Source of the DNA: an uncultured Spirochaetota bacterium
Lineage (GTDB): Bacteria > Spirochaetota > UBA4802 > UBA5550
DNA length: 64,000 nucleotides
Direction of reading: 5' to 3'
Assembly: GCA_963827275.1 (NCBI GenBank)
Contig: CAWHAA010000002.1
Span: forward strand, 128,001 to 192,000
In this document: one piece after another, positions 22,741 to 44,473 of the stretch
How the letters are laid out: the number at the start of each line of letters is the position of its first letter
Position numbering within the stretch: position 1 is the stretch's first letter
Position numbers and translations under genes: made by a program
Notes under the pieces: generated by a model
Told to the model about the DNA's origin: nothing
Seen by the model: only the letters and a program-made list of their open reading frames with translations
Database searches by the model: none

Positions 22741-22769
22741 AAAACCCTCTTGATTTAGAGGGTTTTTTT
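22741..22769. terminator. Bidirectional terminator between convergent genes
   Basis: AAAACCCTCT-TGATTT-AGAGGGTTTTTT. Confidence 0.85.
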
Positions 22770-23931
22770 ATATCACCCTGACCATTACAACTTCCTTGAT
22801 GTTCCTGATCTGCGTGACCGTGGGGTCATCGATTTCCGAATCGATATCGATGATATTATACGCGTAATCGCCCTTGCTCTTGTTCAGCATGTTCGCGATG
22901 TTTATCTTTCTACCGGCAAGCACCTGGGTGATCTGTCCGATGATTGCGGGAATGTTTTTGTTCGCGATGACGATCCGCCGTTTCGCCGACAGTGCCATGG
23001 AACAGTCGGGGAAATTGACCGAATTCCTGATGTTCCCCTTCTCGAGATATTCGCGGAGCTGGTCAATAGCCATCTCCGCGCAGTTTTCTTCCGATTCGGG
23101 TGTTGAAGCGCCCAGATGCGGGATGGGGATCACCCCGTCAATCTGGAGCAGTTCATCATCGGGAAAGTCAGTCACGTAGGATGCCACGGTGCCTGCTTTC
23201 AGCGCCGCCGTGAGGTCGGCGTTATTGACAAGGCCGCCGCGCGCGAAATTTATAATGCGTACGCCTTTTTTCATGAGGGCGAACCGGTCCTTGTTCAGCA
23301 TCCCCTTGGTCCTGTCATCCAGTGGCGCGTGCAGCGTGATATAGTCGGATTCAGCTACCAGGGTATCAAGGCTGATTGCCCTCTTCACCGAGCGGGAAAG
23401 CACCCAGGCCGTCTCAACAGAGATGAACGGATCATAACCGGTCACCTCCATGCCCAGGGAGAGGGCATCGTTTGCGACAATGACCCCGACCGCGCCGAGG
23501 CCGATGACGCCGAGTTTTTTCCCCTTGATCTCGGGTCCGGTATAGTCGGATTTTCCCTTTTCAATGAGCTTGGGGACTTCATCTCCCTTTCCCGCCAGGC
23601 TTTTGACCCAGGCGATGGCCTCGTAAACCTTCCGTGACCCCATGAGGAGGCCAAGGATCACGAGCTCCTTAACGGCATTGGCGTTTGCCCCGGGCGTGTT
23701 GAATACGACGACTCCTCTTTTTGAACAGGCATCAACCGGGATATTGTTGATGCCCGCACCGGCGCGGGCTATCGCGAGAAGCGACCGGGGGAGTTCCATG
23801 GTGAGCATGTCGGCGCTCCGCACCAGTATTGCGTCGGGATTCATGATATCGCTGGCATGTTCATACAGGTCCGCCGGAAAGCGGCTGAGGCCCTCTGGGG
23901 ATATCCTGTTCAATTTTTGTATTTTGAACAT
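22768..23931 (-). CDS. serA: D-3-phosphoglycerate dehydrogenase with ACT domain
   Basis: ARAGAG, NTPGANANAV, GLGAVG, NFARG, PHLGAST, C-terminal ACT. Adjacent to serC. Confidence 0.9.
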   Translation of the reverse strand: MFKIQKLNRISPEGLSRFPADLYEHASDIMNPDAILVRSADMLTMELPRSLLAIARAGAGINNIPVDACSKRGVVVFNTPGANANAVKELVILGLLMGSRKVYEAIAWVKSLAGKGDEVPKLIEKGKSDYTGPEIKGKKLGVIGLGAVGVIVANDALSLGMEVTGYDPFISVETAWVLSRSVKRAISLDTLVAESDYITLHAPLDDRTKGMLNKDRFALMKKGVRIINFARGGLVNNADLTAALKAGTVASYVTDFPDDELLQIDGVIPIPHLGASTPESEENCAEMAIDQLREYLEKGNIRNSVNFPDCSMALSAKRRIVIANKNIPAIIGQITQVLAGRKINIANMLNKSKGDYAYNIIDIDSEIDDPTVTQIRNIKEVVMVRVI

Positions 23932-23940
23932 CTACACACC

Positions 23941-25023
23941 TTATCTGTTTGCCATCTCGAATTTTTTCATAAAGTCGATCAGTTTCCTGATCCCTTCGAT
24001 CGGCATGGCGTTGTAAATACTCGCCCGCATACCACCGACCGAGCGGTGGCCCTCAAGCTGCACGAATCCCGCTTTATTTGCTTCTTTTAAAAATTTGGCT
24101 TCAAGCTCCTTGGTTGTCGCGATGAACGGAACGTTCATAAGTGAACGGTCTTCCCTCGCTATCGGGCTCTTGAACATGGCGGAATTATCGATATGGTCAT
24201 AGAAGAGTTTCGCTTTTTCTTCGTTGATCTTCTGCATGCCCGGCACGCCGCCCAGCTCCCTGAGCCATTCGAATACCAGCTTCGCAATGTAGATGCCGTA
24301 GGTCGGGGGCGTATTGTAGAGGGACCTGTTTTCAACATGGGTCGTGTACTTGAGCATGAGCGGCGTGATCTCCATGGCATGCCCGACCAGGTCTTCCCTG
24401 ATAATGACGATGGTGAGGCCGGCGGGCCCGATGTTTTTCTGCGCGCCTGCGAATATAATCCCGAACCTCTTCACGTCGACAACTTCGGAGAGTATATTTG
24501 ACGACATGTCGGCAACCAGGGGCACGCTCCCGGTATCGGGATAGGTCGTAAACCTGGTGCCTTCGATAGTGTTGTTGGAGCAAATATGGAAATACTCGGC
24601 GTCCTTTGAAAACGTGCTGCTGTCAAGCTTCGGGATATAGGTGAAATTCCTGTCTTCGGAAGAGGCGACAATGTTCAAAGAGCCGTAGTGCCTGATCTCT
24701 TCTATCGCCCGTTTTGTCCAGGTCCCCGTGTGGACAATGTCGACCTTTTTGCTGCCCCTGAGGAGGTTCAGGGGGATCATGGAGAACTGGCTTGACGCGC
24801 CCCCCTGAAGAAACAGGACCTTGTAGTTGTCCGGTATGCCCATCAGCTCACGGAGCAATGCCTCGGCGGTCATGATAATATCGTCGAAGGCCTTGGAGCG
24901 GTGGCTCATCTCCATCACGGACATTCCGGAATCCCTGTATTCCACCAGTTCGCTCGCTGCTTTTTTTAGAACTGGTTCGGGAAGTACTGCCGGGCCGGCT
25001 GAGAAATTGTATACTCGTGTCAT
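23941..25023 (-). CDS. serC: Phosphoserine aminotransferase
   Basis: NFSAGPA, SHRS, DMSS, GAQKNIG, GHRSVGGMRASIYN. AAGGAG RBS. Confidence 0.96.
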   Translation of the reverse strand: MTRVYNFSAGPAVLPEPVLKKAASELVEYRDSGMSVMEMSHRSKAFDDIIMTAEALLRELMGIPDNYKVLFLQGGASSQFSMIPLNLLRGSKKVDIVHTGTWTKRAIEEIRHYGSLNIVASSEDRNFTYIPKLDSSTFSKDAEYFHICSNNTIEGTRFTTYPDTGSVPLVADMSSNILSEVVDVKRFGIIFAGAQKNIGPAGLTIVIIREDLVGHAMEITPLMLKYTTHVENRSLYNTPPTYGIYIAKLVFEWLRELGGVPGMQKINEEKAKLFYDHIDNSAMFKSPIAREDRSLMNVPFIATTKELEAKFLKEANKAGFVQLEGHRSVGGMRASIYNAMPIEGIRKLIDFMKKFEMANR

Positions 25024-25119
25024 GGGTATCTCCTTATAGCTTGTAATGACAGGCGGCTGTTGCGCGTGCCGCATCGATGCAATAGGTAACGGTGCCAGCA
25101 GTTCTGCTCTGACACACCG

Positions 25120-25776
25120 CTATCGTTCGCCGCGTGCGAGCAGTGACGACAGGTACCTGAATTCGGTTATGATGTCGATATTCCGTATGTACACCGAGGC
25201 GACCGGGGAGCTAAGGATTACCGGCGTAAAGTTGATGATCCCTTTTATGCCGCCCTGAACCAGGCGCTCGGTGATTTTTTTTATGTTCCGGTCCCGCTCT
25301 GTTACTACCGCCAGTTCGATCGCTTCTTTTTTTACAATCGATTCTATTTCGTATGTCGGGTATACCGGGATGGTTGATTGCATCGTCTCCAGCTTGTTTA
25401 TGTTTGAATCAAAGCCCGCGATAATCTTGAAGGATGGAAACGGCAGTGACTGGTAGTCAAGTATCACTGACCCGAGGGGGCCGAGCCCGATCAGGCATGC
25501 GTTCCGTTCCCTGGTAAAGCCCAGTGTCTCCTCGATGCTTTTTTTCAGTCCCTGTATATCGTACCCCGCGCCGCTGGTGCCGTTTTCTCCCAGGTACCCT
25601 ATGTCTTTTCGTATGCTGTGTGAACCGGCGCCAAGCCTGGTGCCGATGTCCCGGGATGATATGGATCGTTCGTCCTTTTCGCCTATCTCTTCAAGCAGGG
25701 TATATAAGGTACACAACCGCGATAATGCCGGTTGTGGAATATAGTTTTTTCCTTTATTGAGTTTATCAGTAATCAT
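25120..25776 (-). CDS. rex: Redox-sensing transcriptional repressor Rex
   Basis: IP...L.RL..Y, IRKD, G..G.GY winged helix, Rossmann GLGPLG, I.NFTP. Confidence 0.88.
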   Translation of the reverse strand: MITDKLNKGKNYIPQPALSRLCTLYTLLEEIGEKDERSISSRDIGTRLGAGSHSIRKDIGYLGENGTSGAGYDIQGLKKSIEETLGFTRERNACLIGLGPLGSVILDYQSLPFPSFKIIAGFDSNINKLETMQSTIPVYPTYEIESIVKKEAIELAVVTERDRNIKKITERLVQGGIKGIINFTPVILSSPVASVYIRNIDIITEFRYLSSLLARGER

Positions 25777-25784
25777 AAAAATCA

Positions 25785-25802
25785 CCGTGAAATAATTCAC
25801 AA
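25785..25802. promoter_or_regulatory. Rex operator 1
   Basis: CCGTGAAATAATTCACAA versus consensus TTGTGAA-N4-TTCACAA (2 mismatches), just upstream of the rex start. Confidence 0.75.
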
Positions 25803-25827
25803 TAATTGTCAAATAAATTTTGGTAGA

Positions 25828-25845
25828 TTGTGAAAAATTTCTCAA
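25828..25845. promoter_or_regulatory. Rex operator 2
   Basis: TTGTGAAAAATTTCTCAA (1 mismatch to consensus). Confidence 0.8.
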
Positions 25846-25943
25846 TTTTTTTGGTTGAAAATTATACCGGCTATAGATAAATGGTCTGTTAATACAATTT
25901 ATGATTACATTCTTATCATTATAAATTCTACCAGGATATAAAG

Positions 25944-27170
25944 ATGGCTCTACTACATGATTTTAGAGGCCTGCGTCCGAAAAAGGACCTGGTATCCCGG
26001 GTCTCAGTCCTGCCCTATGATGTGGTCAGTACCGATGAAGCCAGGAAAGCGGGCGGCAATAATCCATACAGCTTTTTTCATATATCGAAACCGGAGATAG
26101 ATTTTCCGGATACGATCGATAGCCATGATCCCCGGGTATTTGAACATGGAAAGGAATATCTGAGCAGAATGGTCAGGGACGGCGTCCTTGTCCAGGATGA
26201 AGCGCCCTGCCTGTATCTCTATACGCAGGTAATGGACGGCCGTGAGCAGACCGGACTGATCGCCTGCGTCAGCATCGATGATTACATAAACAAAGTAATA
26301 AAAAAACATGAGCTGACCAGGGAAGACAAGGAGCTCGAGCGGACAAGGCACACTGACGTTCTCAATGTGAACTCCGGGCAGGTTTTTCTTTTCTTCAGGG
26401 ATTCAGGGTCGAAGCGCCAGCTGTTCGAACAGGCGATGCGGATAGAACCTGAATATGATTTCAGGACCGGGGACGGGGTGCGGCAGGTCGTCCGGGTGAT
26501 CAGGGACAGGGCGATGATCGCGTCCTTCAAGGACGCCTTCAGGGACGATGTGCTGTATATTGCAGACGGGCATCACCGGGCAGCGTCGGCGGTCCGGGTG
26601 GGTATGGAGCGGCGAAAGGCGAACAGGGGGCATAACGGATCGGAAGAATACAATCGCTTCATGGCGGTGATTTTCCCCCACAGCCAGCTGAAAATTCTTG
26701 CCTACAATCGAATCATCCGCGACCTGAACGGGCTCACTGCCGATACGTTTATCAAAAAATTATCTGAAAATTTTAAAGTAGAAAAAACCGGGCTGACCGT
26801 ACCGGAGACAATCCACACGATATGCATGTATCTCGGGTCTGCCTGGTACCTGCTTGCGCCCCGCTTCGATCCGGGGGATGATCCCATCATCAGCCTCGAC
26901 GTGAAGATCTTTCAGGAATACGTGCTCGGGCCGGTCCTGGGTATCATGGACCCGCGGACTGATAAGCGGATAGACTTCATAGGCGGCACAAACAGCGTCG
27001 CAGAATTGAAGGAACGGGTTGATTCAGGGGAATTCACGGTCGCCTTTTCCCTCTACCCGACGACCCTTGAGCAACTGATGCGGGTATCTGACACCGACGG
27101 GATCATGCCGCCGAAATCGACGTGGTTTGAGCCTAAGCTTCAGAGCGGGCTTGTGGTGCATCTTTTGTGA
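25944..27170 (+). CDS. DUF1015 family protein
   Basis: PYDV, HELT, YIADGHHR, MPPKSTWFEPKL. Confidence 0.92.
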   Translation: MALLHDFRGLRPKKDLVSRVSVLPYDVVSTDEARKAGGNNPYSFFHISKPEIDFPDTIDSHDPRVFEHGKEYLSRMVRDGVLVQDEAPCLYLYTQVMDGREQTGLIACVSIDDYINKVIKKHELTREDKELERTRHTDVLNVNSGQVFLFFRDSGSKRQLFEQAMRIEPEYDFRTGDGVRQVVRVIRDRAMIASFKDAFRDDVLYIADGHHRAASAVRVGMERRKANRGHNGSEEYNRFMAVIFPHSQLKILAYNRIIRDLNGLTADTFIKKLSENFKVEKTGLTVPETIHTICMYLGSAWYLLAPRFDPGDDPIISLDVKIFQEYVLGPVLGIMDPRTDKRIDFIGGTNSVAELKERVDSGEFTVAFSLYPTTLEQLMRVSDTDGIMPPKSTWFEPKLQSGLVVHLL

Positions 27171-27776: not shown

Positions 27777-28191
27777 TTCCTGTTTATTAGCTCATTAATA
27801 TTTTCGATAGATTGTCATGTATCGATAATAGATTTTATTGGTTTGGCATGAGAAAAATTGATCCCGCCTGTCATCCGGTTATTGAATTGAAAAAAAAGGC
27901 AAAAAAATGATGATTTTTATGCATTTTTATAAATGCATTGACAATTTATATAATTGTAATCATTTTAAATTAGCAGTTTGCCGGGAAACAACAAACAGCT
28001 AAACGATATATGGAAGCATCGCCTTTTTTTGAGGCTTTAGCCGATAAAAATGTGAGGGTTTACGAATTCACTTCGTAAAACTGGCCCTGAAAAACTCCAT
28101 GGAGCGGGTTTTTCAGGAAACTGGTAGATTTTTTTTGTATATATAGTAACAGCTCGTATAAATTTGCGCCACAGTGTTGGGACAGTACACT

Positions 28192-29307
28192 ATGAGTAAA
28201 CCCGCATTCAATAAATGGATAATGATCCTCTCAATTTCGTCAGCACTCCTCGCCTGCCCGGGTCTGTTCTTGGGGACGGGGCATACTGAGATTTATGAAG
28301 GAACCGCGAATAATTACAATTATTACGCTGAAACGATAAATATAAAGAGCATTAATGGGAAACTCTACGCATATATTGTGCTGCTCTTCAACGAAAATCC
28401 GCATTTTGTGAACATGATCCAGAAGGACAGTATCCCGCTGAAGATAATGGGCAGCGATGGATTCCATATCAGGGAATACAAGAATTACCTCGCATCGATA
28501 CGGGACAAAAAGCTGAAGGGCCTCGCCAATCTCCTTCTTTCAATTTACCTTGAGGCGCGGAAATATGACCACAAGGCATTGCACGGTGTGGAGGAGCTCC
28601 TGACCGGCAGGGACATTATATTGAAATTTTCAAGGGATAAAAATGACTGGTCTGAAAAGATTTCCCTTGATTACTGCATATTCGGGAAGAAAAAAATCGT
28701 TGATATCAAGCACCCGTTTTTTGAGATCAGGGAGAACATTTTCAATATCCAGCCGTTTATATATTATGACGAGTTTTCCACGAGTAATTCGACGTTTTAC
28801 TTTGACATGATATACATAAACCCGGTCGAAGTCGATAATGACTACATCATTGCAAGAAAAATACTCAACGGTGAAAATGTCAGCTCCATGTTCTTCGTCG
28901 GGTCACAGATCACGGATGATATACGGTATTGCCTCTCGCGGGCGTTCAGGGATAAAAAGAACATCAAGATCGAGATATGGAAGATGTTCATTATTCATGA
29001 GCTGACGCACAAGGTGCTCAACAACAGGTACAATAACTTCGACCAGGTGCAGGGAGAGGAATTATCGCTGGGGAGCACCATGTATTATAACCCGCTGCTC
29101 GGGCTTTCAGTGCTCTACAGCTACCTGAACTACAATGCGATCAATCCGCACCGCGTGGCAGCCATGAACTACGTCAGGTTCATTTCAAAAAATACCGGCA
29201 AGGCCGCAATAATTGAAAATCCGGGGCTTATAAAATTTTTGCCGTCGGGCGAACTGCAGAGCCTGTCAAAAAAACATTTCATATCCAGCATTAAAAGCGT
29301 TAGATGA
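28192..29307 (+). CDS. Exported hypothetical protein with HExxH (putative zincin metallopeptidase)
   Basis: N-terminal hydrophobic segment, IIHELTHKV and a downstream GEELS. Confidence 0.6.
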   Translation: MSKPAFNKWIMILSISSALLACPGLFLGTGHTEIYEGTANNYNYYAETINIKSINGKLYAYIVLLFNENPHFVNMIQKDSIPLKIMGSDGFHIREYKNYLASIRDKKLKGLANLLLSIYLEARKYDHKALHGVEELLTGRDIILKFSRDKNDWSEKISLDYCIFGKKKIVDIKHPFFEIRENIFNIQPFIYYDEFSTSNSTFYFDMIYINPVEVDNDYIIARKILNGENVSSMFFVGSQITDDIRYCLSRAFRDKKNIKIEIWKMFIIHELTHKVLNNRYNNFDQVQGEELSLGSTMYYNPLLGLSVLYSYLNYNAINPHRVAAMNYVRFISKNTGKAAIIENPGLIKFLPSGELQSLSKKHFISSIKSVR

Positions 29308-30399
29308 TCAGAAGCTCAGCCGAATGGGCCGTTTTGCCTTCATGTCATGGTAGGATAACTGCGCGTCACCGGTGTATGCGTTGCAGGTAATGGTGTCAGG
29401 TATATTCAATTTTTTTTTCACGTAGAGTGTTGATTCGATAGCTTCCCATGCTTCTACCGTCTTTTCGCATGAAATGGCAAGGAGATTGTAGATCGATTCA
29501 TAGTGGTGCCCTGATTTCCCCGCCGGGTTTTCCCATTGTTCTCGGTTGAGATTAAGTATGTTCTTGTTGTATTTCCTGCCGATCGGGTAGCGGATTATGA
29601 AATCTGAATAGAAGAGGTTGCTTCTTCTGACGCCGAGCACCAGGTCCGCAATTCGCCTGTTCGTGCCCCGCTTGAGCCGGTATGTCATGAGAATGCAGTA
29701 CGGCAGGATGTCCAGTGCGCCGGGGAGGTGTGAATATTTTTTCAATGCATTCCTGGCAATCGGGAACAACAGCGTTTCGTAAATTTCGGGATACACCTCC
29801 TGCAACGGTTCCAGCACGATCGCTTTTACCGGCGCGTCCAGGTGATAGAGCCCCCGTCGTTTTTTCACCGGCAGCATCTCGTCGACGGAAAAGGGAAACA
29901 ATTCGGATCGTTCCGCGTGGTACTGCAGGTACGAATCAATATGATACTGGAAAAGAAGGTTTTGTTCACGGTAGAACCGTATCTCCTTCTTTGTGTATGC
30001 GCTCGGAAAGCCGGAGTAGTAAAAGACAAAGGGATGGAACAGCGAGTCCGCTATGATGTGCGAGATATACCCGTACAGGTATGCGCGCTGTATCGATGCC
30101 CACTCGTTGTTCTTGTCTTCATATCCGTGGAGTTTCCGAATCATGGCCTGGAGCAATTTGTTCGATCCGCCGTTATGAAGGAAAAAGGATATGTCGCTGC
30201 CATAATAGGCATTTTTGCTGCGCCGGGGCAGGTAGTCGAATATATTCGGGCCGATTGCCCCGAACAAGCCGGCGGTCAGGTGGTCCGGCGTGTTGAACAG
30301 GGCAGCTATGGAATTCAAGAGGTAGCTTTTTTTATCTTTTTGCGAAAGATAGCGCACCGCCTCTTTAAGAATCCTGCTGTGGGTTATTATGCCGGGCAT
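29308..30399 (-). CDS. Zinc-dependent phospholipase C/P1-nuclease family protein
   Basis: MPG..TH N-terminus, GAIGPN, H, GYISHIIADSLFHP. Confidence 0.78.
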   Translation of the reverse strand: MPGIITHSRILKEAVRYLSQKDKKSYLLNSIAALFNTPDHLTAGLFGAIGPNIFDYLPRRSKNAYYGSDISFFLHNGGSNKLLQAMIRKLHGYEDKNNEWASIQRAYLYGYISHIIADSLFHPFVFYYSGFPSAYTKKEIRFYREQNLLFQYHIDSYLQYHAERSELFPFSVDEMLPVKKRRGLYHLDAPVKAIVLEPLQEVYPEIYETLLFPIARNALKKYSHLPGALDILPYCILMTYRLKRGTNRRIADLVLGVRRSNLFYSDFIIRYPIGRKYNKNILNLNREQWENPAGKSGHHYESIYNLLAISCEKTVEAWEAIESTLYVKKKLNIPDTITCNAYTGDAQLSYHDMKAKRPIRLSF

Positions 30400-30441
30400 A
30401 ATGACGCAGCCCGCGTGACCGGAAACCAGGTCACGCGGGGC

Positions 30442-31275
30442 CTAGTTTTCAAGTTTTTTCTTGAAGGCGTCAATTTCCGCACGCCATTTTTTTGAATAGA
30501 ACACGCCCCAGATTTCCGGGGCCGCGAGCTTATATGCCGTGTCCAGATGTCGAAGCGCTTTTTCTTTGTTGTCATCCTCGGAAAGCGCTTCCGCTAAAAA
30601 CATGAAGTTCTGCGGGTGCTCGGGATACCCGGCAGCAGCTTTCTCGAGGAGCTCCAGCGCCTTGTCGAGGTCGCCAATACCGCTGGGCCATGCGGGGGCC
30701 TTGAGGTACATCATTCCCAGAACACGCAGCGGCCCACCGGATTCAAGCTGTTCGGCCTTCTGCGCGATTTTAAGCGCCTCGTGGACTTCCGGCAGCTTGT
30801 TGAGGGCAAAAAGGCCCTTTGACCTTAAAATCAGGCCCTGGTTCAAGGCAAAATAGAAGCATGCTTCCGGGTTCTTCTCGGTAATCCCGGCCGCGCGTGC
30901 CGCACTCACGCCGATCTCGGCGCTTTTTTTCATTTTATCCTCATCGGTGTCAAGGGCGTCGGCGACATAGAAGGCGGTCCGGGCAAGGAGAACGCCGGTA
31001 TTCTGTGTCTTCCGATCGAGCCCGAACGCCTGGGTCGCCAGGCGCATCGCGTAGACCTTCTGGCCGAAAGACGCCGACGGGATGCAGAGCTCGTTGACGA
31101 TGTGCGTCAATGCCTTCGCGTTGTTGATGATCGGCAGGGTGCGAATATCGGCACCGTACCAGTCCGCCTGGGGCTCTTCCTGCTCGCTTTTCGCCTGCTC
31201 GGTCTGGCGAAGCTCCTGGTGTATCGCGCAGCCGGACATAAGCAGAATGACGAAAAAACTACTGAGCGCTTTCAT
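30442..31275 (-). CDS. TPR lipoprotein, TatT/BstC-like
   Basis: Lipobox LMSG-C, all-helical, GGPLRVLGMMYLKAPAWPSGIGDLDKALELLEKA. Confidence 0.7.
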   Translation of the reverse strand: MKALSSFFVILLMSGCAIHQELRQTEQAKSEQEEPQADWYGADIRTLPIINNAKALTHIVNELCIPSASFGQKVYAMRLATQAFGLDRKTQNTGVLLARTAFYVADALDTDEDKMKKSAEIGVSAARAAGITEKNPEACFYFALNQGLILRSKGLFALNKLPEVHEALKIAQKAEQLESGGPLRVLGMMYLKAPAWPSGIGDLDKALELLEKAAAGYPEHPQNFMFLAEALSEDDNKEKALRHLDTAYKLAAPEIWGVFYSKKWRAEIDAFKKKLEN

Positions 31276-32122
31276 ATTTGCTGATTTCATTTGCCAGTGT
31301 CTCCGCCTCTAATTTATCAAAACCGTCGATGCCGAAATTCTTGCACGCGGCTTTCGTGTCCTGCTGGTTGCACATCCGTGTAACCGCGCCCACGATCCTG
31401 GGCTTTGCCGCGCTGTTGGTTTTTGTGGTGATCATCATCAATCCAAGCGCCGGCATCTGCGGTGATTTGTGAATGACCTCGATCTTTTTGAATATGTCGA
31501 GGTTCTTGAGGCTGCTGTACTGCATATGGTTCAGGAGCACGGCGTCATACTGGCCCGAATCAAGCTTGCGCACCGCCGAAAGGGGACGGTTGGAAGGCTG
31601 GAGTTTGAAATGCTTGGCTATGTCTATTTTTTTTTCAAAGATCAGGTTGTTGATGAACTTTTTATCTTCGTAGAGGACATTGCCTGCCAGTATCTTTCCC
31701 TTCAGCTGGGCCAGCGACTTGTAGCTGCCCTTTTTTACGATGAGATAATATTCTTCCCTGTCGTTGCCGTCGATATTGACCGCGGCGAGCGGCTCAAGGT
31801 TCATTGCCTTGCGATTGGCCAGGTAAAAACCGATTGATCCCATGATGTACGAGTTTTTGTTCTGCTGGATGCTGGTTTTTGCATCATCGATTTTGTTGAA
31901 ATATTTTCCCTGTATCGAATCTTTCTTCATCCCTGTCAGCTTGGTAAGCGATGACATGAACTGGGTGATGATCTTCTCGCCTTCGGCGCCGGTATCCGGC
32001 CCGCCGAGGAAGATAACGGCAAAGTTTATTTTTTCCGCGCAATGGACTGGTGTCAGCAGGGGCGCGAACAGGGCTCCCATCGCGAGCAGTAAGGCAACAG
32101 CGGCAATTCTCTTCGTGTTCAT
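31259..32122 (-). CDS. Periplasmic binding protein, PhnD/SsuA/transferrin fold (BstB-like)
   Basis: Signal peptide, YYLIVKK...SLAQLKGK, A...L.SGQYDAVLL, S..P. GGAG RBS. Overlaps the next gene. Confidence 0.72.
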   Translation of the reverse strand: MNTKRIAAVALLLAMGALFAPLLTPVHCAEKINFAVIFLGGPDTGAEGEKIITQFMSSLTKLTGMKKDSIQGKYFNKIDDAKTSIQQNKNSYIMGSIGFYLANRKAMNLEPLAAVNIDGNDREEYYLIVKKGSYKSLAQLKGKILAGNVLYEDKKFINNLIFEKKIDIAKHFKLQPSNRPLSAVRKLDSGQYDAVLLNHMQYSSLKNLDIFKKIEVIHKSPQMPALGLMMITTKTNSAAKPRIVGAVTRMCNQQDTKAACKNFGIDGFDKLEAETLANEISKYESAQ

Positions 32123-32617
32123 GTAATACTTCTCCTTGTATAATAATCAATTAGTTGGTGCAAGGTCTGCCAGCGTTATCAGGCAAGGCAGTAAAACCAT
32201 GGGATATAAATCTTTTATTATTTTTATATCGCATATATCTTGAAAAAGAGTAAGAATACTGCAATCTGACGGGTATTTAAGAATGAAAACGTTAATAATA
32301 TAAACATTTTCTTGATTAAATACATCTATGTCAATGAATTTTTTCATGACAATTAGACCCCGGTTAAGGCGTGAAAGTTCATCATAAATATTATATTTTT
32401 GCATTATCCCGCAAGCTTTTAAGGTGAGCGTATCCGTTTATGTTATGATAAATCATCGATTTATTCCCTTCCGTTTCATGGCACATCCGCATAAAAAAAT
32501 GCTTGCAGAGGAGGCATAATCTTTTTAGTAACTATAACAATCAGTTATATACGCGGCTTGTGGCCTGGTGCGCGGGTATTGTGCTGAAAATCTACTACGA
32601 TAAACACCGAGAGTATT

Positions 32618-35462
32618 ATGCAAAGAAAAATCCTTGATTTTATATTCAACCTGTCGCTGCAGCGCGGGAAATTGCTGCTGGTCATCATGTCGATCATTAC
32701 CGTCATCTTCGGCACATTTATCCCCCGGCTTATCATCTCGTCCTCGCAGCAAAACCTGATCCCCGCGGACGATCCGGAGCAGGCGAGATACATCCAGTAT
32801 AACAAGGAATTCGGCTCCTCGGACAACCTGATTATCGTCCTCGACGGCGACAGCGACGCGTGCAAGGAGTACGCCGATGATTTTGCGCGGGAGCTCGAAA
32901 AGGAGCAGAAATGGGTCAAGTCGGTATTTTACAAGATCGACGCCAGCGTGCTGCTGAAACGGGCGCCGCTGTATGTGCCGGCCGAAGATCTGAACAAGGG
33001 ATTCGAGTTATTGCAGAAGAAGCAGGGGATGATCGAGCGGGTTAAAAATATTTCCAGCCTGTATGCATTGCTCAATGAAATAACGGAAAGCTTTAAAGAG
33101 CCGAACAGTGAAATTTCCATCGAGGCGGCGACGAAAATAATCGCCTTTATCAATACCTTTTTTGCCGAATGGAACGACTGGATCATCAACACGAACCAGA
33201 TCAAGCTGAAAATCGGAGAAAAGATTTCACAGGCGGGGTTCCCGCAAATGGCGATGCTGCAGAGCGAGGGGTACCTGTTTTCCCGCGATTTTAAAATGAT
33301 GTTCCTGCTCGTTCAGCCTAAAGATTACGATGATGAAATAACCTATCTCCGGCCGTTCATGAAGGATATCCGCGCGGCCTGCGACCGGGCGAAACGCACG
33401 CACCCGGAATTACAGGACAAGGTCAAGGTGGCCTTTACCGGGATGCCGGCCCACGTGCTCAACCAGACCGAAATCATTTATTCTGATGTGGGACATGCGG
33501 CGATCGGCTCGGTCGTCATCGTCGCGCTCATTCTCCTCATCGGGTTCCGTTCTATCAAGAAAACCATTGTCGGGGTCATTCCCACCGTTGCGGGGATGGT
33601 CATCTCCCTCGGTATTTTAACGCTCTTCCTCGGGAAGCTGAACCTGATCAGCTCTTCCTTCCTGGCGGTCCTGTTCGGTATCGGGATCGATTTCAGCATC
33701 TATCTCCTCCAGCGAACGGAAGAGGAGCTGGGGAACGGGCTGTCGCAGAATGACGCGATATACAAGTCGGTCGTACTGACCAGCCGGTCCATCATCTCCG
33801 GGGGCCTCACCACGAGCCTCGCGTTCCTTGCGCTGGCGCTTTCAAAGTTCCAGGGGTACTCGGAGCTCGGCTGGGCCGCGGGCATCGGCCTCATCGTCGT
33901 CATGTTCACCACCTTTTTCATGATGCCGGCGCTGCTCATGAATATCCCGGTTGAACCGCGGATGTATCGTGTAAAGGAGACCATCAAGGAAGCGGGTATT
34001 TTAGAAAGGAAAGAAGATACACCTGGTGCTTATCGGCGTGGGCGTCATCATCACCATCGCCAGCATCATAGCCACGACCAGGCTCAAAATGGACTATAAC
34101 ATAATCAAAATGCTGCCGACGAAAACTGAATCCTCTATCTACCAGAACAGGATGGAAGAGGAGAGCGATTACAAGATGTCCTTCGTCATGATAACAGACA
34201 CCGATCTGGTGCGTTTGAAAGAGATCACCGAGAAGGTCAAGGCCCTGCCGACGGTCAGCAAGGTCGAGTCCCTGGCAGACCTCATTCCTTCCGACCAGGA
34301 AAAAAAGATCAGGATCATGAAGAAATTTAAACCGCTCCTCGGTGATTTCCGCATCGGGCTCAGGGACAATGACCAGATCGGCGCGGACTATATCGCCGCG
34401 CTGGACCGGATAAGCGTCTATTTCGAGGAAGCGCAGGAAAAGGCGTTTGCGGGGAGCCAGACCAGGCTGGTGGAGCAGATTGACCTTGTCATGAAAAACA
34501 TCGATGCCATCAAGAAAAAACTCGCGTCGGACAGGACCGGCATGGCCCTGGTACGGACGAGGAAATTCGAGAAGGAGCTTTTCGCGAATCTGGAAAAAGG
34601 GACCCAGCTCATCCGCGAAAGCCTGAACCCGGCCGTTATCACGGAGGCCACGTTCCCGAAAGAGATAATCAGCAGGTTTAAAAGCGAGAAGGGGACCTAT
34701 GTGGCAATGGTGTCACCGAAAGGCTCAATCTGGGATGTTGATTTTCTCGACACGTTCGTGAATGGCCTCAAAAAAATCACTCCGAATGTCACCGGGTTTC
34801 CTGTCACACACCGGGTCTATGTGCGGCAGGCGGCGACTGCGATATTTCAGGCAATGATGTATTCTTTCATTGTTATACTGATACTCCTGATAATTGATTT
34901 CAGGGGCCTCAGGGGGGTGCTCCTCTCCCTGCTCCCGCTCTTCATGGGGATGATGCTCCTCCAGCTGATGATGTTCGTGTTGAGAATTGATTACAATGTC
35001 GCCAATATCGCCGGGCTGCCGCTGCTGCTCGGGCTTGGCGTGGTCTATGGTCTCCGGATCGTGCATCGCTGGAGGGAGGACCCGTCCATTACCGCCTTTG
35101 CCGCGACACAGACAACGGGCAGGGGGCTCGCTTTCGCCGCGTTTGCAATCATAGCAGGCCTCATCAGCATAGTTCCCGCTCGTCATAACGGCGTGTCCTC
35201 TTTCGGCGTGATCCTGCTCATCGGGATCATAACCTGCATGTTCACGGCGCTTATCATTTTACCGGCGATCATCGACTATCTCTATGTCATGAAAAAAGGT
35301 GAAGAGCCGGCGGAGGAAAGCGCCGCGATACCCGCGGCGGACCCGGAGGGAAGAAAGCCGGGGGCCAGGCGCTCGTCAGCGAAGCAGAAAACGAAACCAG
35401 GCGCAAAGAAAAAAACAGCCGTGAAAAAGAAGGCGGCAAAGCCAGCTAAAAAGAAAAAATAG
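32618..35462 (+). CDS. MMPL/RND lipid transporter, HpnN/BstA-like, with a +1 frameshift near 34010
   Basis: Two-repeat RND topology, TG.P, GIGIDFSIYL, GGLTT, NVANIAGLPLLLGLGV. Removing one A from AGGAAAGAAG joins ORFs 32618-34099 and 34026-35462 (ERKKIHLVLIGV). Confidence 0.85.
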
Positions 35463-35512
35463 CGGCCGCCGGCATGTTCCTGCGAAGCAGTATGGAATAA
35501 AAGACAGTCGTG

Positions 35513-35540
35513 AAAGGGCACCGGATACGGTGCCCTTTTT
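35513..35540 (+). terminator. Rho-independent terminator
   Basis: AAAGGGCACCG-GATA-CGGTGCCCTTT followed by T residues. Confidence 0.88.
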
Positions 35541-37460: not shown

Positions 37461-38192
37461 ATGATGGATTTTTTTAAAAAAACATCTGCCCTCATTTCCC
37501 TCTTCCTGCTCCTGGCAGGCTTCGCCCCGGCGCACCGCAGCCCTGCGGCATTCGGGGAGATGAGTGCCGCGGGCACGTTTTCATCCTCCATAGCGGGACA
37601 GGATGACAATGTCAGGCGCAATATCATGATCGCGGTCGGGAAGCTGAACGGGGCCCTGATTGCCCCCGGCGCCGTATTTTCATTTAACGATGCCGTGGGG
37701 GAAGGGTCCGCAAAAAACGGCTTCCTGCCGGGAAGGGTACTCTATCGCGACCGCGTGGCCATGGAACCGGGGGGCGGCCTCTGCCAGGTTTCATCAACCC
37801 TTTATAACGCGCTCCTCATGGCGGGCTGCGTAATTATAGAGCGACACCGCCACTTCCAGCCGGTGACGTACGTGCCGCTGGGCCTCGACGCCACCATCAA
37901 ATACGGCAAGAAGGACCTCAGGATTAAAAACCCGTACCGGCACCGCCTGAAAATCGAGATGAGCGCTTCCGATGCGAGTCTCAATGCCCGGGTGCTGTCC
38001 GAAGAAAGGCCGTCGTTCAGGTACGAAATATTCACAGAGGAAGAGGAACTGGCGCTGCCCGCGGCCGATGATGTCGAGAACATACGCCAGGGGATATCGG
38101 TCCATGTGTACCGGAAGCGGTACCGCGGTGATACCCTGCTGGAGAGCGCGCTGCTGTATAAAGATTATTATCCTCCCGTGTACACGCGATGA
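37461..38192 (+). CDS. VanW family exported protein
   Basis: Signal peptide, R..NI..A...LNG, FSFN..VG, GGGLCQVSSTLYNA, ER..H, YVPLGLDAT. Confidence 0.92.
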   Translation: MMDFFKKTSALISLFLLLAGFAPAHRSPAAFGEMSAAGTFSSSIAGQDDNVRRNIMIAVGKLNGALIAPGAVFSFNDAVGEGSAKNGFLPGRVLYRDRVAMEPGGGLCQVSSTLYNALLMAGCVIIERHRHFQPVTYVPLGLDATIKYGKKDLRIKNPYRHRLKIEMSASDASLNARVLSEERPSFRYEIFTEEEELALPAADDVENIRQGISVHVYRKRYRGDTLLESALLYKDYYPPVYTR

Positions 38193-38205
38193 CCGGGAGG
38201 CGGGA

Positions 38206-38823
38206 ATGAAGGCGGCAAGGACAGGCGGGCTCGTGATGGCCCTGTTTTTTTTCTTCGCGGCAGGCGGTGACGTTTCCGGCGGCGCCAGCCCGGCCGAAGA
38301 CCCGCTGCTTGCGGAATGGAATGAATTTTCGAAACAACCTGAATGCAAAGCGCTCATGGCATGGCTCCGCCGGCAGGCGCTATCGCGCCTTACCGGCGCG
38401 CGGTGCGACGATCGACTTACGGTATCGACCCCTGACTATTTCGGAAAACTCGGGATGTTCATTACCCTGCAGAAAAAGAAAAAGGTGCGCGGCTGTTACG
38501 GATCGTTTTCGCACGGCATTGATACCATCGAGCCGTTGCTCCGGGATTATCTCGCCGGGGCCCTCACCAGGGACCTCCGGCATGAACCCCTTGACATAGC
38601 TGAATTTCCCGATACCGACATTATCCTGACGGTCACCTCGGCCCCGTTCGCCATTGATGATCCCGGGTCGGTCGACCTGCGCAGGTACGGGATTGTGGTC
38701 GCGTGCGGCGATGACCATGCCGTGTTTGTCCCTGCCGAGATCAGGAGCCTTTCGTCCCTGGAAAAAATAACGGCCGGAAAATCGTGCCAGGTTTCGTCAT
38801 TTGCCGCCGTTACGATTCGGTGA
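38206..38823 (+). CDS. AMMECR1-domain protein with N-terminal signal peptide
   Basis: GMFITL...VRGCYG, D.RHEPL, YGI, VFVP, hydrophobic N-terminus. Confidence 0.78.
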   Translation: MKAARTGGLVMALFFFFAAGGDVSGGASPAEDPLLAEWNEFSKQPECKALMAWLRRQALSRLTGARCDDRLTVSTPDYFGKLGMFITLQKKKKVRGCYGSFSHGIDTIEPLLRDYLAGALTRDLRHEPLDIAEFPDTDIILTVTSAPFAIDDPGSVDLRRYGIVVACGDDHAVFVPAEIRSLSSLEKITAGKSCQVSSFAAVTIR

Positions 38824-38870
38824 TGGTTCCGTCAGCCCTCTGGCGCAACATATAATTTCTGGAGGACACG

Positions 38871-41800
38871 ATGTGTAAGAAAATATTCTCCTGCCTCATC
38901 CTTGTTTCACTCGGCCTCATCCTCACGCATTGCGATACCGCCGGGGTCAAGCGCCTCGATGACGGGCGGAGCATATATCTGTCTGACGGCAAAAAGCTGT
39001 CGGCTAAAACGGGTATTGAGGGACACGTCATAGATGCAAAGACGAAGAAGGGGATACGGGACGCGCAGGTTGAAATGAAAAACGCCAACATGGGAGTCGG
39101 GTATTATACGCGTGAGACCGACCGGAACGGCTATTTCAAAATAGAGGATTTCATCCCGTATGTCAGGTACTCCGTCGAAGCCACAGCGAAAGGGTACGTA
39201 ACGTACCGGTCGACCGGACCGGTGACGGGAGGAAGCCATACATTTGCGCTGGCGCCGGAATCGCGGCTGAGCGGCACCGTCAGGAACAGGAAGGGAGAGC
39301 CGCTCCTGGGTGTGGAGGTTAAGCTCACCGCGTACGATGAACCGACGGAGGAGGGAGAGAACATCGTTTCACGTGCGCCGCGTATCGCCGCGACGGACGG
39401 CAATGGATCCTACGGGTTCGACAAGCTTCCCGCCGGCTCATACACGGTCCTGTTCACCTTCCCCGGGTGCATCAGTGAAACGGCGCAGGTGCGGAACATC
39501 AAGGAAGGCGAGAGCTTTGATCTTCCCATGGTAATGACGCGGCCCGCATCGGTGATGGGGAACGTTGTAATAGAGGGGCTCAACTCTCCGGCGATCAACG
39601 TGGACGTCTCAATCGAGGGACAGGTGACCCAGTCCGCGGCGACATTCCAGGACGGTACCTACCGGCTGGATGACGTAAAGCCGGGCACGTACAAGATGAC
39701 CGTCGCACACCAGGGGTTTTATGAGCTGACCGCGCATACGATAAAAATAAGCGAAGGTGAAAAGCGGGAGAACGTGAATTTTACCGTGAAGGCGAAGGAG
39801 CCCCAGGTCCAGGTATACGCGTACCGGTACACCTTTGCGCCGGGAGATGCCATTGAGTTCAATGTGCGCTCGTTGAGGCTGGAGACCCTGAAGGCGACAG
39901 TATACCGGGTGCCGATCGATATTCTGGTGCGGGGCGGGGTCGATGCGGACAGGCTTGATCCTGCGGCCGAGGGCTTCAAGGCGCTCTTCTCGTGGGACGA
40001 GCCGGTCAGGGAATTCGAACCCTATGAATGGCGGTACCAGTCGGTACAGGTGAAGAACCCCCTTTCCACCGGGGGCTACTGCATCGAGGTCAGGGGCGCG
40101 GGCAGGGTGATCAGCAGGAAGTTTTTCTCTCTTACCACCGTCGGGGTAGTGATGAAGCGCTCCCGGGAATCGGTCTTTGCCTATGTCACCAGCCTCGTGG
40201 ACAATACGCCCATCCCGGACGCACGCGTGGTGCTGTTCGATACCACGCCGCAAAAAAAGAAAGGGAAGAAGGCGACCTATGATCCGCCTGACCAGGTGGA
40301 GGACCTTCCCGTAAAAGCGCTGCTCCAGGGGAAAACGGACCGGGACGGCATCTGCCACAAGGGCTTCAGATCTGACCGGCATATTTCCGCGATCGTCATA
40401 GCCGGTGATGGCAGTTACGCCATCTGCAATACCGGGTCGCCGTCGTCGTTTGAGAAGGAGCAAAAGAAATATTTCATATACACTGACCGGCCCGTGTACC
40501 GGGCGGGAGACGCGGTGCATTACAAGATCATTGCGAAAAACCGCGAGCGGCGGTTCGTGCCGGTCGCCGGCGAGCGGTTGTATTACAGGATCGTGAACCG
40601 CGACATGGCAAAGACGGTCGCCGAAGGGGAAATGACGCTCGATGACTGGGGCACTGCGGACGGGGCACTGGCGCTGTCACGCGAAGCCCACCTCGGCGTG
40701 CATGAAATCATGGCGGGGCCGACGGTGAAAAACCTCTATAGCAGGGGGCGGTTCTATGTCGAGCAATACCGGAAGCCGGAATTCATCATAAAAATTATAC
40801 CGTCAAAAGATTATTTCATCAACGGCGACACGACCGAATTCAAGGTCGAATCGAAGTACTTTTTCGGCGCGCCGCTCAAAGGGGCCCTGGTGCAGTATCG
40901 GTTTTATGAAACGCGGCTCAGGGACGCCAACACCACCTACTGGTGGGAGCGCGATTATGGCGACAGCGCGCCGTACAACCGCATCGTCCTTGAAGGGGAA
41001 AAGTACGCCGATGACGAAGGGGTCGCCGTGCTGCGGCTCCATGCCGGGAACCTTCCCTATGACCGGGAGATCACCTGCGAGGCCACGGTGGTGGACCGCT
41101 CCAATGTCAGCATCACGGCCTCCGGCACGGTACGGATCGGGCGCGGGGAATATTACATCAAGATAGAACCGACCCGGAATTTTTTCGCCGCCGGCGAGAA
41201 AAAGGTCGTGGCGGTAAAGACCATGACCCATACCGGGAAACCGCTCAGTGCCCGGGTGAAGGTGGAGCTCTTCCGGTATATATGGAAGCCGTGGGAGCGG
41301 GTGTATGTCCATGACAGCAGGCCGCTCTATTCGGAAACGGCGACAACCGACAGCAGGGGGGCCGTGCTCATCGAGCTGCCGAAACAGTTCAGCCTGTACG
41401 GCGAATTTGACATGGTGGTCACCGGCACTGACCGGAGGGAAAACCGGATCACCGCGTCGCGGGTCATCTGGGTCTACGGTGCGGAGGGGTCAGCGGTGGC
41501 GTCGCGCTTTAAAAACCTGGAGCTGACCCTGGACACGGACGAGATGGCGAAGCCGGGCGAGGTCACCTGCCTCGTCAAGAGCTGCTTCACCGATGCGTAT
41601 GTGTGCCTCACCCTTGAAGGGAGGGACGTGTATGAATCGAAGGTCGTTAAAATGACGGGCAACATCGTCCCGGTGAAGTTCACCGTCAAAGAGGCGTACG
41701 CGCCGAACCTGTACGTGACCGCGTCCATGCAGCGGAAGCGGGCCCTCTATACCGAATCGGCCGGGATAACCATCCCCGTCAATGACACGGAGCTCTCCCT

Positions 41801-44246: not shown

Positions 44247-44257
44247 AGGGTGCGCAT

Positions 44258-44470
44258 ATGAAACCAAAGACAATACTCATTATCGTGATCGTCGTGCTCC
44301 TGACGATATTCGCGATGCAGAATACCCACGCGGTCGTTGTCAATATGCTGTTCTGGCATCCGGATTTTCCCCTGATTATCCTGGTGCTGGTGTTATTGGG
44401 CGCAGGGCTTGTCGCGGGATACCTTGCGGGGGGTGCCGCCCAGGTCAAGAAGAAGGAAAAAGAGTATTAG
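44258..44470 (+). CDS. LapA/DUF1049 small membrane protein
   Basis: Two TM helices flanking FAMQNTHAV.V. Confidence 0.8.
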   Translation: MKPKTILIIVIVVLLTIFAMQNTHAVVVNMLFWHPDFPLIILVLVLLGAGLVAGYLAGGAAQVKKKEKEY

Positions 44471-44473
44471 CGC

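Follow-up and report, generated by a model that had tools for sequence, protein, structure and literature searches.

We examined a window of 64,000 nucleotides (the whole stretch of DNA analysed, positions 128,001 to 192,000 of contig CAWHAA010000002.1, assembly GCA_963827275.1) from an uncultured bacterium whose homologues place it in Spirochaetota, and within it a locus that resembles bstABC, the sterol transport genes of Methylococcus capsulatus. A preliminary description, made from the sequence alone, had reported four genes at 29308..35462, namely a resistance-nodulation-division (RND) transporter gene divergent from overlapping genes for a periplasmic binding protein and a TPR lipoprotein, followed by a phospholipase C-like gene. 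All four genes are found at these coordinates:

32618-35462, plus strand: bstA-like RND/MMPL inner-membrane transporter gene, with an MMPL match and a Lys-rich C-terminal tail, divergent from bstB and bstC
32618-34099 (493 amino acids) and 34026-35462 (478 amino acids), plus strand: overlapping open reading frames, the two halves of the one bstA gene in this assembly
34008, plus strand: extra base splitting bstA, missing from the contigs of 4/4 sequencing runs from four separate studies
31259-32122, minus strand: bstB-like periplasmic binding protein gene, 287 amino acids, PF12974 match (E 4e-16), signal-like sequence at the N-terminus
30442-31290, minus strand: bstC-like TPR lipoprotein gene, 282 amino acids, TPR matches, lipobox Cys21
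29308-30399, minus strand: Zn-dependent phospholipase C-family gene (PF00882, E 2e-8), a neighbour in this genus that lies outside the conserved module

The bstB-like and bstC-like genes share a 32 bp overlap. The preliminary description overlooked the frameshift in bstA and treated as one uninterrupted gene what in this assembly are two overlapping reading frames. This break is likely an assembly error, with a strain-specific lesion as the alternative, because the extra base is absent in all four runs, bstA is one open frame of 902-970 codons in 17/17 relatives whose locus spans the gene, and nrdD is likewise split in this assembly. The four runs compared with the locus belong to a set of 18 that contain at least half of the sampled sequence words, with freshwater, bioreactor, sediment, manure, wastewater, soil and wetland as sources and no RNA data set among those listed.

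For the binding protein, the sole sequence match in the PDB is BstB (7T1M, E 1.8e-30), and its predicted model (pLDDT 88.7) has 7T1M as top fold match with a template-modelling score of 0.87, followed by ArrX, PtxB, AioX and PhnD. The protein had first been assigned to the PhnD fold, and by both sequence and fold it is closer to BstB than to PhnD. When the docked sites of PMC10942540 were transferred by hand via pairwise alignments, which map residues and not cavity volumes, the BstB head-group residues E118/Y120/N192 corresponded to E123/Y125/N198, and the BstB-like tail pocket was hydrophobic at 18/19 listed positions, the remaining one being a conserved Ser. The polar phosphonate/sulfonate pocket that the preliminary description had named as evidence against its own reading is therefore not what the mapped residues form. 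The pocket residues of the bst proteins are kept in members of the family with and without a triterpene cyclase. Spirochaetes bacterium RBG_13_51_14 has a BstB-like protein with 68% identity to that of the window.

The lipoprotein shows a similar relationship to BstC, which it matches by sequence at E 3.9e-25 (7T1S) compared with E 1.9e-5 for the TatT structure 8G53, while its model (pLDDT 88.8) superposes on 7T1S with a template-modelling score of 0.83 and on the TPAT proteins 8G53/8G52 with 0.62-0.64. By both measures the lipoprotein is much nearer to BstC than to Es_TatT. In its cavity, BstC E86 is replaced by D111, and of 15 residues nine are identical, five are hydrophobic substitutions and one, M135, is replaced by Gly. 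Co-folding of the BstB-like and BstC-like proteins gave a score of 0.53 (best of three controls 0.00), with runs agreeing on at least 80% of contacts and a partner pLDDT of at least 88; in the benchmark for this procedure, the passes at 0.60 or below comprised 18 of 157 solved complexes together with both passing mismatches among 215, and the model weakly suggests a partnership.

The two halves of the split RND protein score 212 and 240 bits against the BstA model NF045600, and intact relatives score 468-479 bits against this model versus 433-443 bits against the HpnN model TIGR03480 (cut-offs 1400 and 752). Among solved structures the best match is HpnN (5KHN, 6WU0). As the preliminary description had proposed from its GIGID motif, the protein keeps an Asp in transmembrane helix 4 (TM4) and lacks one in TM10, and solved HpnN aligns with the identical pattern. 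The same arrangement is present in 17/17 BstA-like proteins of relatives; among Myxococcota/delta BstA-like proteins, five have a TM10 Asp and one does not.

To define the extent of the module, we compared 18 loci from relatives in one family, 11 from the same genus and seven from other genera. bstC adjoins bstB in all 18, and bstA is present in 17, the exception being a contig of only 3.9 kb. In the 11 same-genus loci bstA is divergent from bstBC as in the window, and in 6/7 loci of other genera (one contig is cut) the genes are collinear as bstA-bstB-bstC, mostly in differing surroundings. The phospholipase C-like gene, in contrast, follows bstC in 10/11 same-genus loci and in 0/7 of the others; its product has no evident signal peptide, and an 11-pair hairpin sets the gene off from bstC. 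We rejected it as a fourth component on the basis of this genus-only synteny. The gene set first proposed thus holds for the RND protein, the binding protein and the lipoprotein, whose co-occurrence extends to relatives' genomes, and not for the phospholipase C-like gene, and the conserved module consists of three genes, bstA, bstB and bstC. Two arrangements elsewhere deserve separate mention. In one genome (G064, L209:10488-16037) the bstABC operon and a second RND gene face each other in convergent orientation, the latter with LolA-like and barrel-like neighbours as labelled by inspection, and in another (G099, L208:7792-11517) a BstB homologue gene and an oxidosqualene cyclase gene are immediate neighbours in divergent orientation.

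The distribution of bstB links the module to triterpene cyclases. In a sample of 122 genomes of the order, 64 of them from the family of the window organism, bstB occurs in 23, all in this one family, and a triterpene cyclase occurs in 11, all of them among these 23, compared with none of the 99 bstB-negative genomes. Within the family the comparison is 11/23 against 0/41 (Fisher p 2e-6) and within the genus 7/12 against 0/5 (Fisher p 0.04), both p values being overstated since kin are not independent. A search of the whole window genome (92% complete, 11 contigs) found no triterpene cyclase, which extends to the genome what the preliminary description had said of cyclase and sterol genes in the window. 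Its remark that the lineage was not known for a cyclic triterpenoid does not stand, as 11 members of the family have a gene for an oxidosqualene cyclase; the cyclases of RBG_13_51_14 and RBG_16_49_21 (loci L066 and L068) already appear in the supplementary trees of PMC8237579, in whose supplement a term search did not find 'U32', 'peptidase' or 'transporter'. No squalene-hopene cyclase was found in the order sample apart from one tetrahymanol-synthase-like enzyme (G028, L055:11688-13574; TIGR04277 465 bits, cut-off 500), which is encoded in an island with the oxidosqualene cyclase of the same genome.

In these relatives the cyclase belongs to an island (L048:3409-13634 and L049-L057) that comprises genes for a TetR regulator, a U32 protein, the oxidosqualene cyclase, dxs, a polyprenyl synthase, IDI-2, a DUF116 protein and usually dxr, and in some genomes also ispF, an ispE-ispH fusion and ispG. 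The cyclase carries a DCTAE motif, has human lanosterol synthase as its nearest solved structure (E 4e-190, against E 4e-47 for squalene-hopene cyclase), and scores 738-758 bits against TIGR03463 (cut-off 851). At the positions of Thr, Cys and Val in human lanosterol synthase it has Tyr, His and Ile, which we take to be the signature of cycloartenol synthase. The U32 protein has a strong match in nine of the ten cyclase-positive genomes among 61 sampled, the tenth being cut at a contig end. Squalene epoxidase (PF08491) was not found in any of the 61 genomes searched. Because squalene synthase (PF00494) was likewise not found in 17/17 genomes of the genus, we propose DUF116 and the polyprenyl synthase as possible suppliers of the C30 precursor by some other route. 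Cytochrome P450 was not found in 5/5 genomes tested, and for that reason a home-made demethylated sterol is an unlikely cargo.

The association between this U32 subfamily and the cyclase extends beyond the family. Among the best 80 of 121 subfamily loci (L063-L142), 45 contain the cyclase, in 43 cases within 1.7 kb, 54 adjoin a chorismate mutase-DAHP synthase fusion, and 17 are flanked by a geranylgeranyl-reductase-family flavoprotein gene. We searched 50 of the 80 genomes, 32 with the cyclase in the locus and 18 without, and found an oxidosqualene cyclase in 49. PF08491 matched in 1/32 of the former versus 12/18 of the latter, 7 of these 13 matches being modest and the family also matching in E. 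coli and Caulobacter; longer-form U32 loci tend toward genomes that also have squalene epoxidase. BstB is present at E<1e-50 in 26 of these 50 genomes of other phyla, with bstA, bstB and bstC within 1.5 kb in 9/26 loci; beyond the order, this distribution covers the 50 chosen genomes and representative sequences, the BstB alignment being too variable for a broad scan. U32 proteins such as UbiU/UbiV hydroxylate without O2 and use prephenate as oxygen donor, as described in the main text of PMC10990095, and from gene content the relatives' island is predicted to make sterols without oxygen. In the titles and abstract openings covered, which leave out most subscription papers, no description of a U32 squalene epoxidase or of spirochaete Bst genes was found, and the main text of PMC10942540 does not contain 'spirochaet' or 'leptospir'.

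The site of the island varies among relatives. Both sites used in the same genus (beside nrdG and beside msr genes) are contiguous and empty in the window genome, in which no island-specific genes were found. When a relative's island was aligned to four runs that contain this species, the cyclase and U32 genes were covered only by short, scattered fragments, at a DNA distance too large for this to show absence. The bst tree and a tree built from neighbouring genes agree in nesting the window genome among cyclase-positive relatives. All cyclases of the family fall into a single clade (SH-aLRT 100) with a similar internal order, placed among Myxococcota/delta-labelled U32-linked cyclases (42 near-full-length rows, quick method, midpoint root), and the BstB proteins of the family cluster with those of one Myxococcales genome and other sequences (FastTree 1.0). 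From this we infer that the island was lost in several lineages, which is the simplest reading of the order of events; repeated gain is also possible because the island site varies. The bst genes are under purifying selection in cyclase-less kin: for G002/G013, a pair without the cyclase, the ratio of nonsynonymous to synonymous substitution (dN/dS) is 0.05-0.14, and pairs with the cyclase give 0.02-0.15. Between the window genome and G010, dS is saturated for most genes. In contigs resembling the same species, 29/34 bstA variants are synonymous, 12 coming from one more divergent contig; these 34 are the variants within the gene among 40 rows examined (6 outside the gene were dropped) from 147 in all.

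We also asked which steroid-type enzymes accompany the module, all labels here being assigned by homology. PF02544 is found in 21/23 bstB-positive and 11/41 bstB-negative family genomes and in 3/58 genomes of other families. For ERG4/ERG24 the counts are 10/23, 6/41 and 0/58, the first including 5/12 of the cyclase-less bstB-positive genomes, and the nearest solved structure to the family's ERG4/ERG24 proteins is the delta-14 sterol reductase 4QUV. An ERG4/ERG24 gene is followed by an EXPERA/EBP-family gene in several loci (L197:8737-10854, L198, L199), also in G010, which lacks a cyclase and P450. The window genome itself has a PF02544 gene (E 2e-48) and, at L212:6001-8849 (its contig C5, ~490000-492850), an NSDHL-like short-chain dehydrogenase/reductase gene (E 1e-42) beside that of a 4AT0-like flavoprotein (E 3.5e-68), which is nearest to 3-ketosteroid delta-4/5-alpha-dehydrogenase.

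The organism is likely anaerobic. This suggestion of the preliminary description agrees with the presence of anaerobic ribonucleotide reductase genes and is qualified by a gene for a heme-copper-oxidase-family subunit I. The latter (L205:2386-4602; contig C6, ~74385-76600) is divergent, scores under all cut-offs, has a small membrane-anchored neighbour, and could by homology act either as an oxidase or as an NO reductase. Elsewhere in the genome, oleD and oleBC-like genes lie with two thiolase-like open reading frames (L211:4060-11507; contig C8, ~447000-454500) in what is probably a long-chain olefin/ketone operon.

Taken together, these data lead us to favour, with moderate confidence, the reading that the locus encodes a sterol relay which in this genome likely serves scavenged sterols, since the genome has no sterol-making enzyme; that the cargo is of sterol type is well supported at the level of the family, as judged by gene content. 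The relay across the inner membrane, the periplasm and the outer membrane that was first proposed agrees with the homology, synteny, hydrophobic pockets and lack of a cyclase in the genome, and loses its phospholipase C-like member and its premise of a lineage without sterol genes. In the mechanism we propose, the RND protein would extract lipid out of the inner membrane, driven by the proton gradient as its TM4 Asp and HpnN-type pattern suggest, the binding protein would ferry it inside the hydrophobic pocket, and the lipoprotein would take it over at the outer membrane; the cargo, the direction of transport and the uptake route we infer from these homologies. The family ancestor would have had both the relay and the U32-oxidosqualene cyclase island, and several lineages, including that of the window, would have dropped the island and kept the relay. 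The 3-beta-dehydrogenase-like, delta-4/5-alpha-dehydrogenase-like and 5-alpha-reductase-like enzymes encoded elsewhere in the genome could then modify the A ring of scavenged sterols before these are set into the envelope. More tentatively, and as a possibility that we regard as rather doubtful, all of this could be joined into one family of sediment and digester spirochaetes with a complete O2-free sterol economy, in which some members build a cycloartenol-type sterol, with the U32 Fe-S protein in place of squalene epoxidase and the polyprenyl synthase and DUF116 in place of squalene synthase, while island-less members turn sterols scavenged from neighbours or detritus into 5-alpha-stanols via the same Bst relay.

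Several observations weigh against the sterol relay. Homology to BstA, BstB and BstC is real by sequence comparison, yet none of the three proteins reaches its equivalog cut-off: the binding protein scores 174 bits against NF045601 and the lipoprotein 133 bits against NF045602 (cut-off 350 for each), and the intact RND relatives fall far under that of NF045600. The spirochaete BstB clade also lies apart from the clade with the only sequence of 66 that passes NF045601. No sterol gene was found beside bstABC in the 18 family loci, with the window's own genes as probes and inspection of the open reading frames of six. The system is therefore BstABC-like, yet not a member by curated cut-offs or sterol-gene adjacency. 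In addition, 12/23 bstB-positive genomes have no cyclase, and the window genome is incomplete. Among the enzymes that would act on a sterol, ERG4/24 and sterol methyltransferase were not found in the window genome, PF02544 also matches in Bacteroides thetaiotaomicron and is not sterol-specific, and one of the two PF01073 (3-beta-hydroxysteroid dehydrogenase-family) matches was dropped as OleD, so that this family is not sterol-specific either. One genome (G026, a single contig, 98% complete) has bstABC and no cyclase, PF02544, ERG4/24 or strong 3-beta-hydroxysteroid dehydrogenase match. Finally, the BstC fold alone leaves the cargo open, because Es_TatT and Tp0956, which share it, bind long-chain fatty acids according to PMC11713862.

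These last points lend themselves to a different explanation, in which the relay now carries some lipid of the cell's own making instead of a sterol, for instance long-chain fatty acids, ketones or olefins of OleABCD type, or a polyprenoid. The fatty-acid preference of Es_TatT and Tp0956, the oleD/oleBC operon and the retention of bstABC in G026 without the tested steroid-type enzymes all agree with such a switch. We nonetheless consider it unlikely, given a lipoprotein far nearer to BstC than to Es_TatT, bstB in every cyclase-positive genome of the order, and pocket residues conserved whether or not a cyclase is present. A still more improbable alternative is sterol synthesis by the organism itself, encoded by an island missing from the assembly, with export of the product as in Methylococcus. 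Incomplete assembly and an island site that differs between relatives would permit this, but both same-genus sites are empty and contiguous, no island-specific genes were found, and the better-assembled G010 (99%), G008 (96%) and G026 (one contig) likewise have no cyclase.

The frameshifted bstA and the absent cyclase could together be taken for a decaying relic left after loss of sterol synthesis. Against this, the extra base is absent from all four runs, most bstA variants are synonymous, and dN/dS is equally low in the pair without a cyclase and in those with one; we find decay very unlikely and reject it for the species. The least credible of the explanations makes the binding protein an oxyanion receptor of PhnD/PtxB type that serves a distant ATP-binding cassette (ABC) transporter or sensor and is clustered here by chance. 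Membership of PF12974 and the next fold matches (ArrX, PtxB, AioX, PhnD) fit such a receptor, but 7T1M is a far better match, the pocket is hydrophobic and the bstA-bstB-bstC unit persists in different chromosomal surroundings, so that synteny and structure led us to reject it.

Further features of the locus are the following:

32123..32617, strand not assigned: divergent intergenic region, AT-rich, with the best sigma-70-like match at 32334-32306 on the minus strand
30410..30439, strand not assigned: 11-pair hairpin in the gap between bstC and the phospholipase C-like gene
35512..35539, plus strand: terminator-like hairpin after bstA

A promoter scan of the locus gave 10 promoter-like sites against 7.5 expected, which is not significant, and an Rfam search of the locus gave no match. 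The flanks hold genes for pyruvate kinase, a VanW-like protein and a DUF1015 protein and an unannotated 377-aa reading frame; as the preliminary description had noted, no ABC permease or DctQM gene adjoins the binding protein gene among them. The 377-aa frame (window 28174-29307, plus strand) matches no Pfam or NCBIfam family, is 75-80% identical across the genus and converges on the phospholipase C-like gene. The VanW-like gene begins a run of reading frames at window 37461-46549 (plus strand), of which those that follow presumably encode an AMMECR1-type protein, an alpha-2-macroglobulin (1791 aa) and a SpoIID-type protein. At window 22768-27170 lie genes that we take to be serA-, serC- and Rex-like, divergent from the DUF1015 gene.

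Among known systems, BstABC of Methylococcus capsulatus (7T1M, 7T1S; NF045600-NF045602) comprises the same three families, with conserved pocket residues (PMC10942540), and its A-B-C order recurs in other genera of the spirochaete family. The window system differs in its ~23-30% identity, below the equivalog cut-offs, in the divergent bstA of this genus, and in its Spirochaetota host, whose genome has no cyclase and whose locus lies away from sterol genes (osc, smo, sdmA/B); in relatives the cyclase is in the genome and not adjacent. HpnN shares the TM4 and TM10 pattern, whereas the window RND family prefers the BstA model, has BstB and BstC partners, and does not reach the TIGR03480 cut-off; nor was a hopene cyclase found in the window genome. 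The TatT proteins (Es_TatT 8G52/8G53 and Tp0956) of TPAT/TRAP systems are likewise lipoproteins of helical TPR fold that enclose a lipid cavity, but they are much weaker matches and no TRAP P/Q/M genes (dctP/dctQM) are adjacent. In contrast to PhnD/PtxB-type ABC receptors, the locus has no adjacent ABC permease or ATPase and no polar oxyanion pocket. The relatives' island resembles UbiU/UbiV, RlhA and TrhP in having a PF01136 protein with conserved cysteines, and differs in that its U32 gene precedes an oxidosqualene cyclase gene and the product would epoxidise an alkene, an activity of U32 proteins not mentioned in the main text of PMC10990095. The chorismate mutase-DAHP synthase neighbour common in the wider subfamily is missing from the spirochaete family's islands.

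According to PMC11713862, descriptions of BstABC are limited to aerobic methanotrophs exporting sterols of their own, and the authors list the search for such carriers in bacteria that import foreign sterols among the questions still open. On the more tentative reading of an O2-free sterol economy, the locus would provide the first bacterial sterol carrier acting on foreign sterols. The family offers a natural paired test, in that close orthologues can be compared between genomes with and without the cyclase. Making sterols is generally taken to require O2, and steranes serve as indicators of aerobic life. A transporter dedicated to the product and inherited together with the U32-cyclase island would give indirect support to the view that this product is a membrane lipid.

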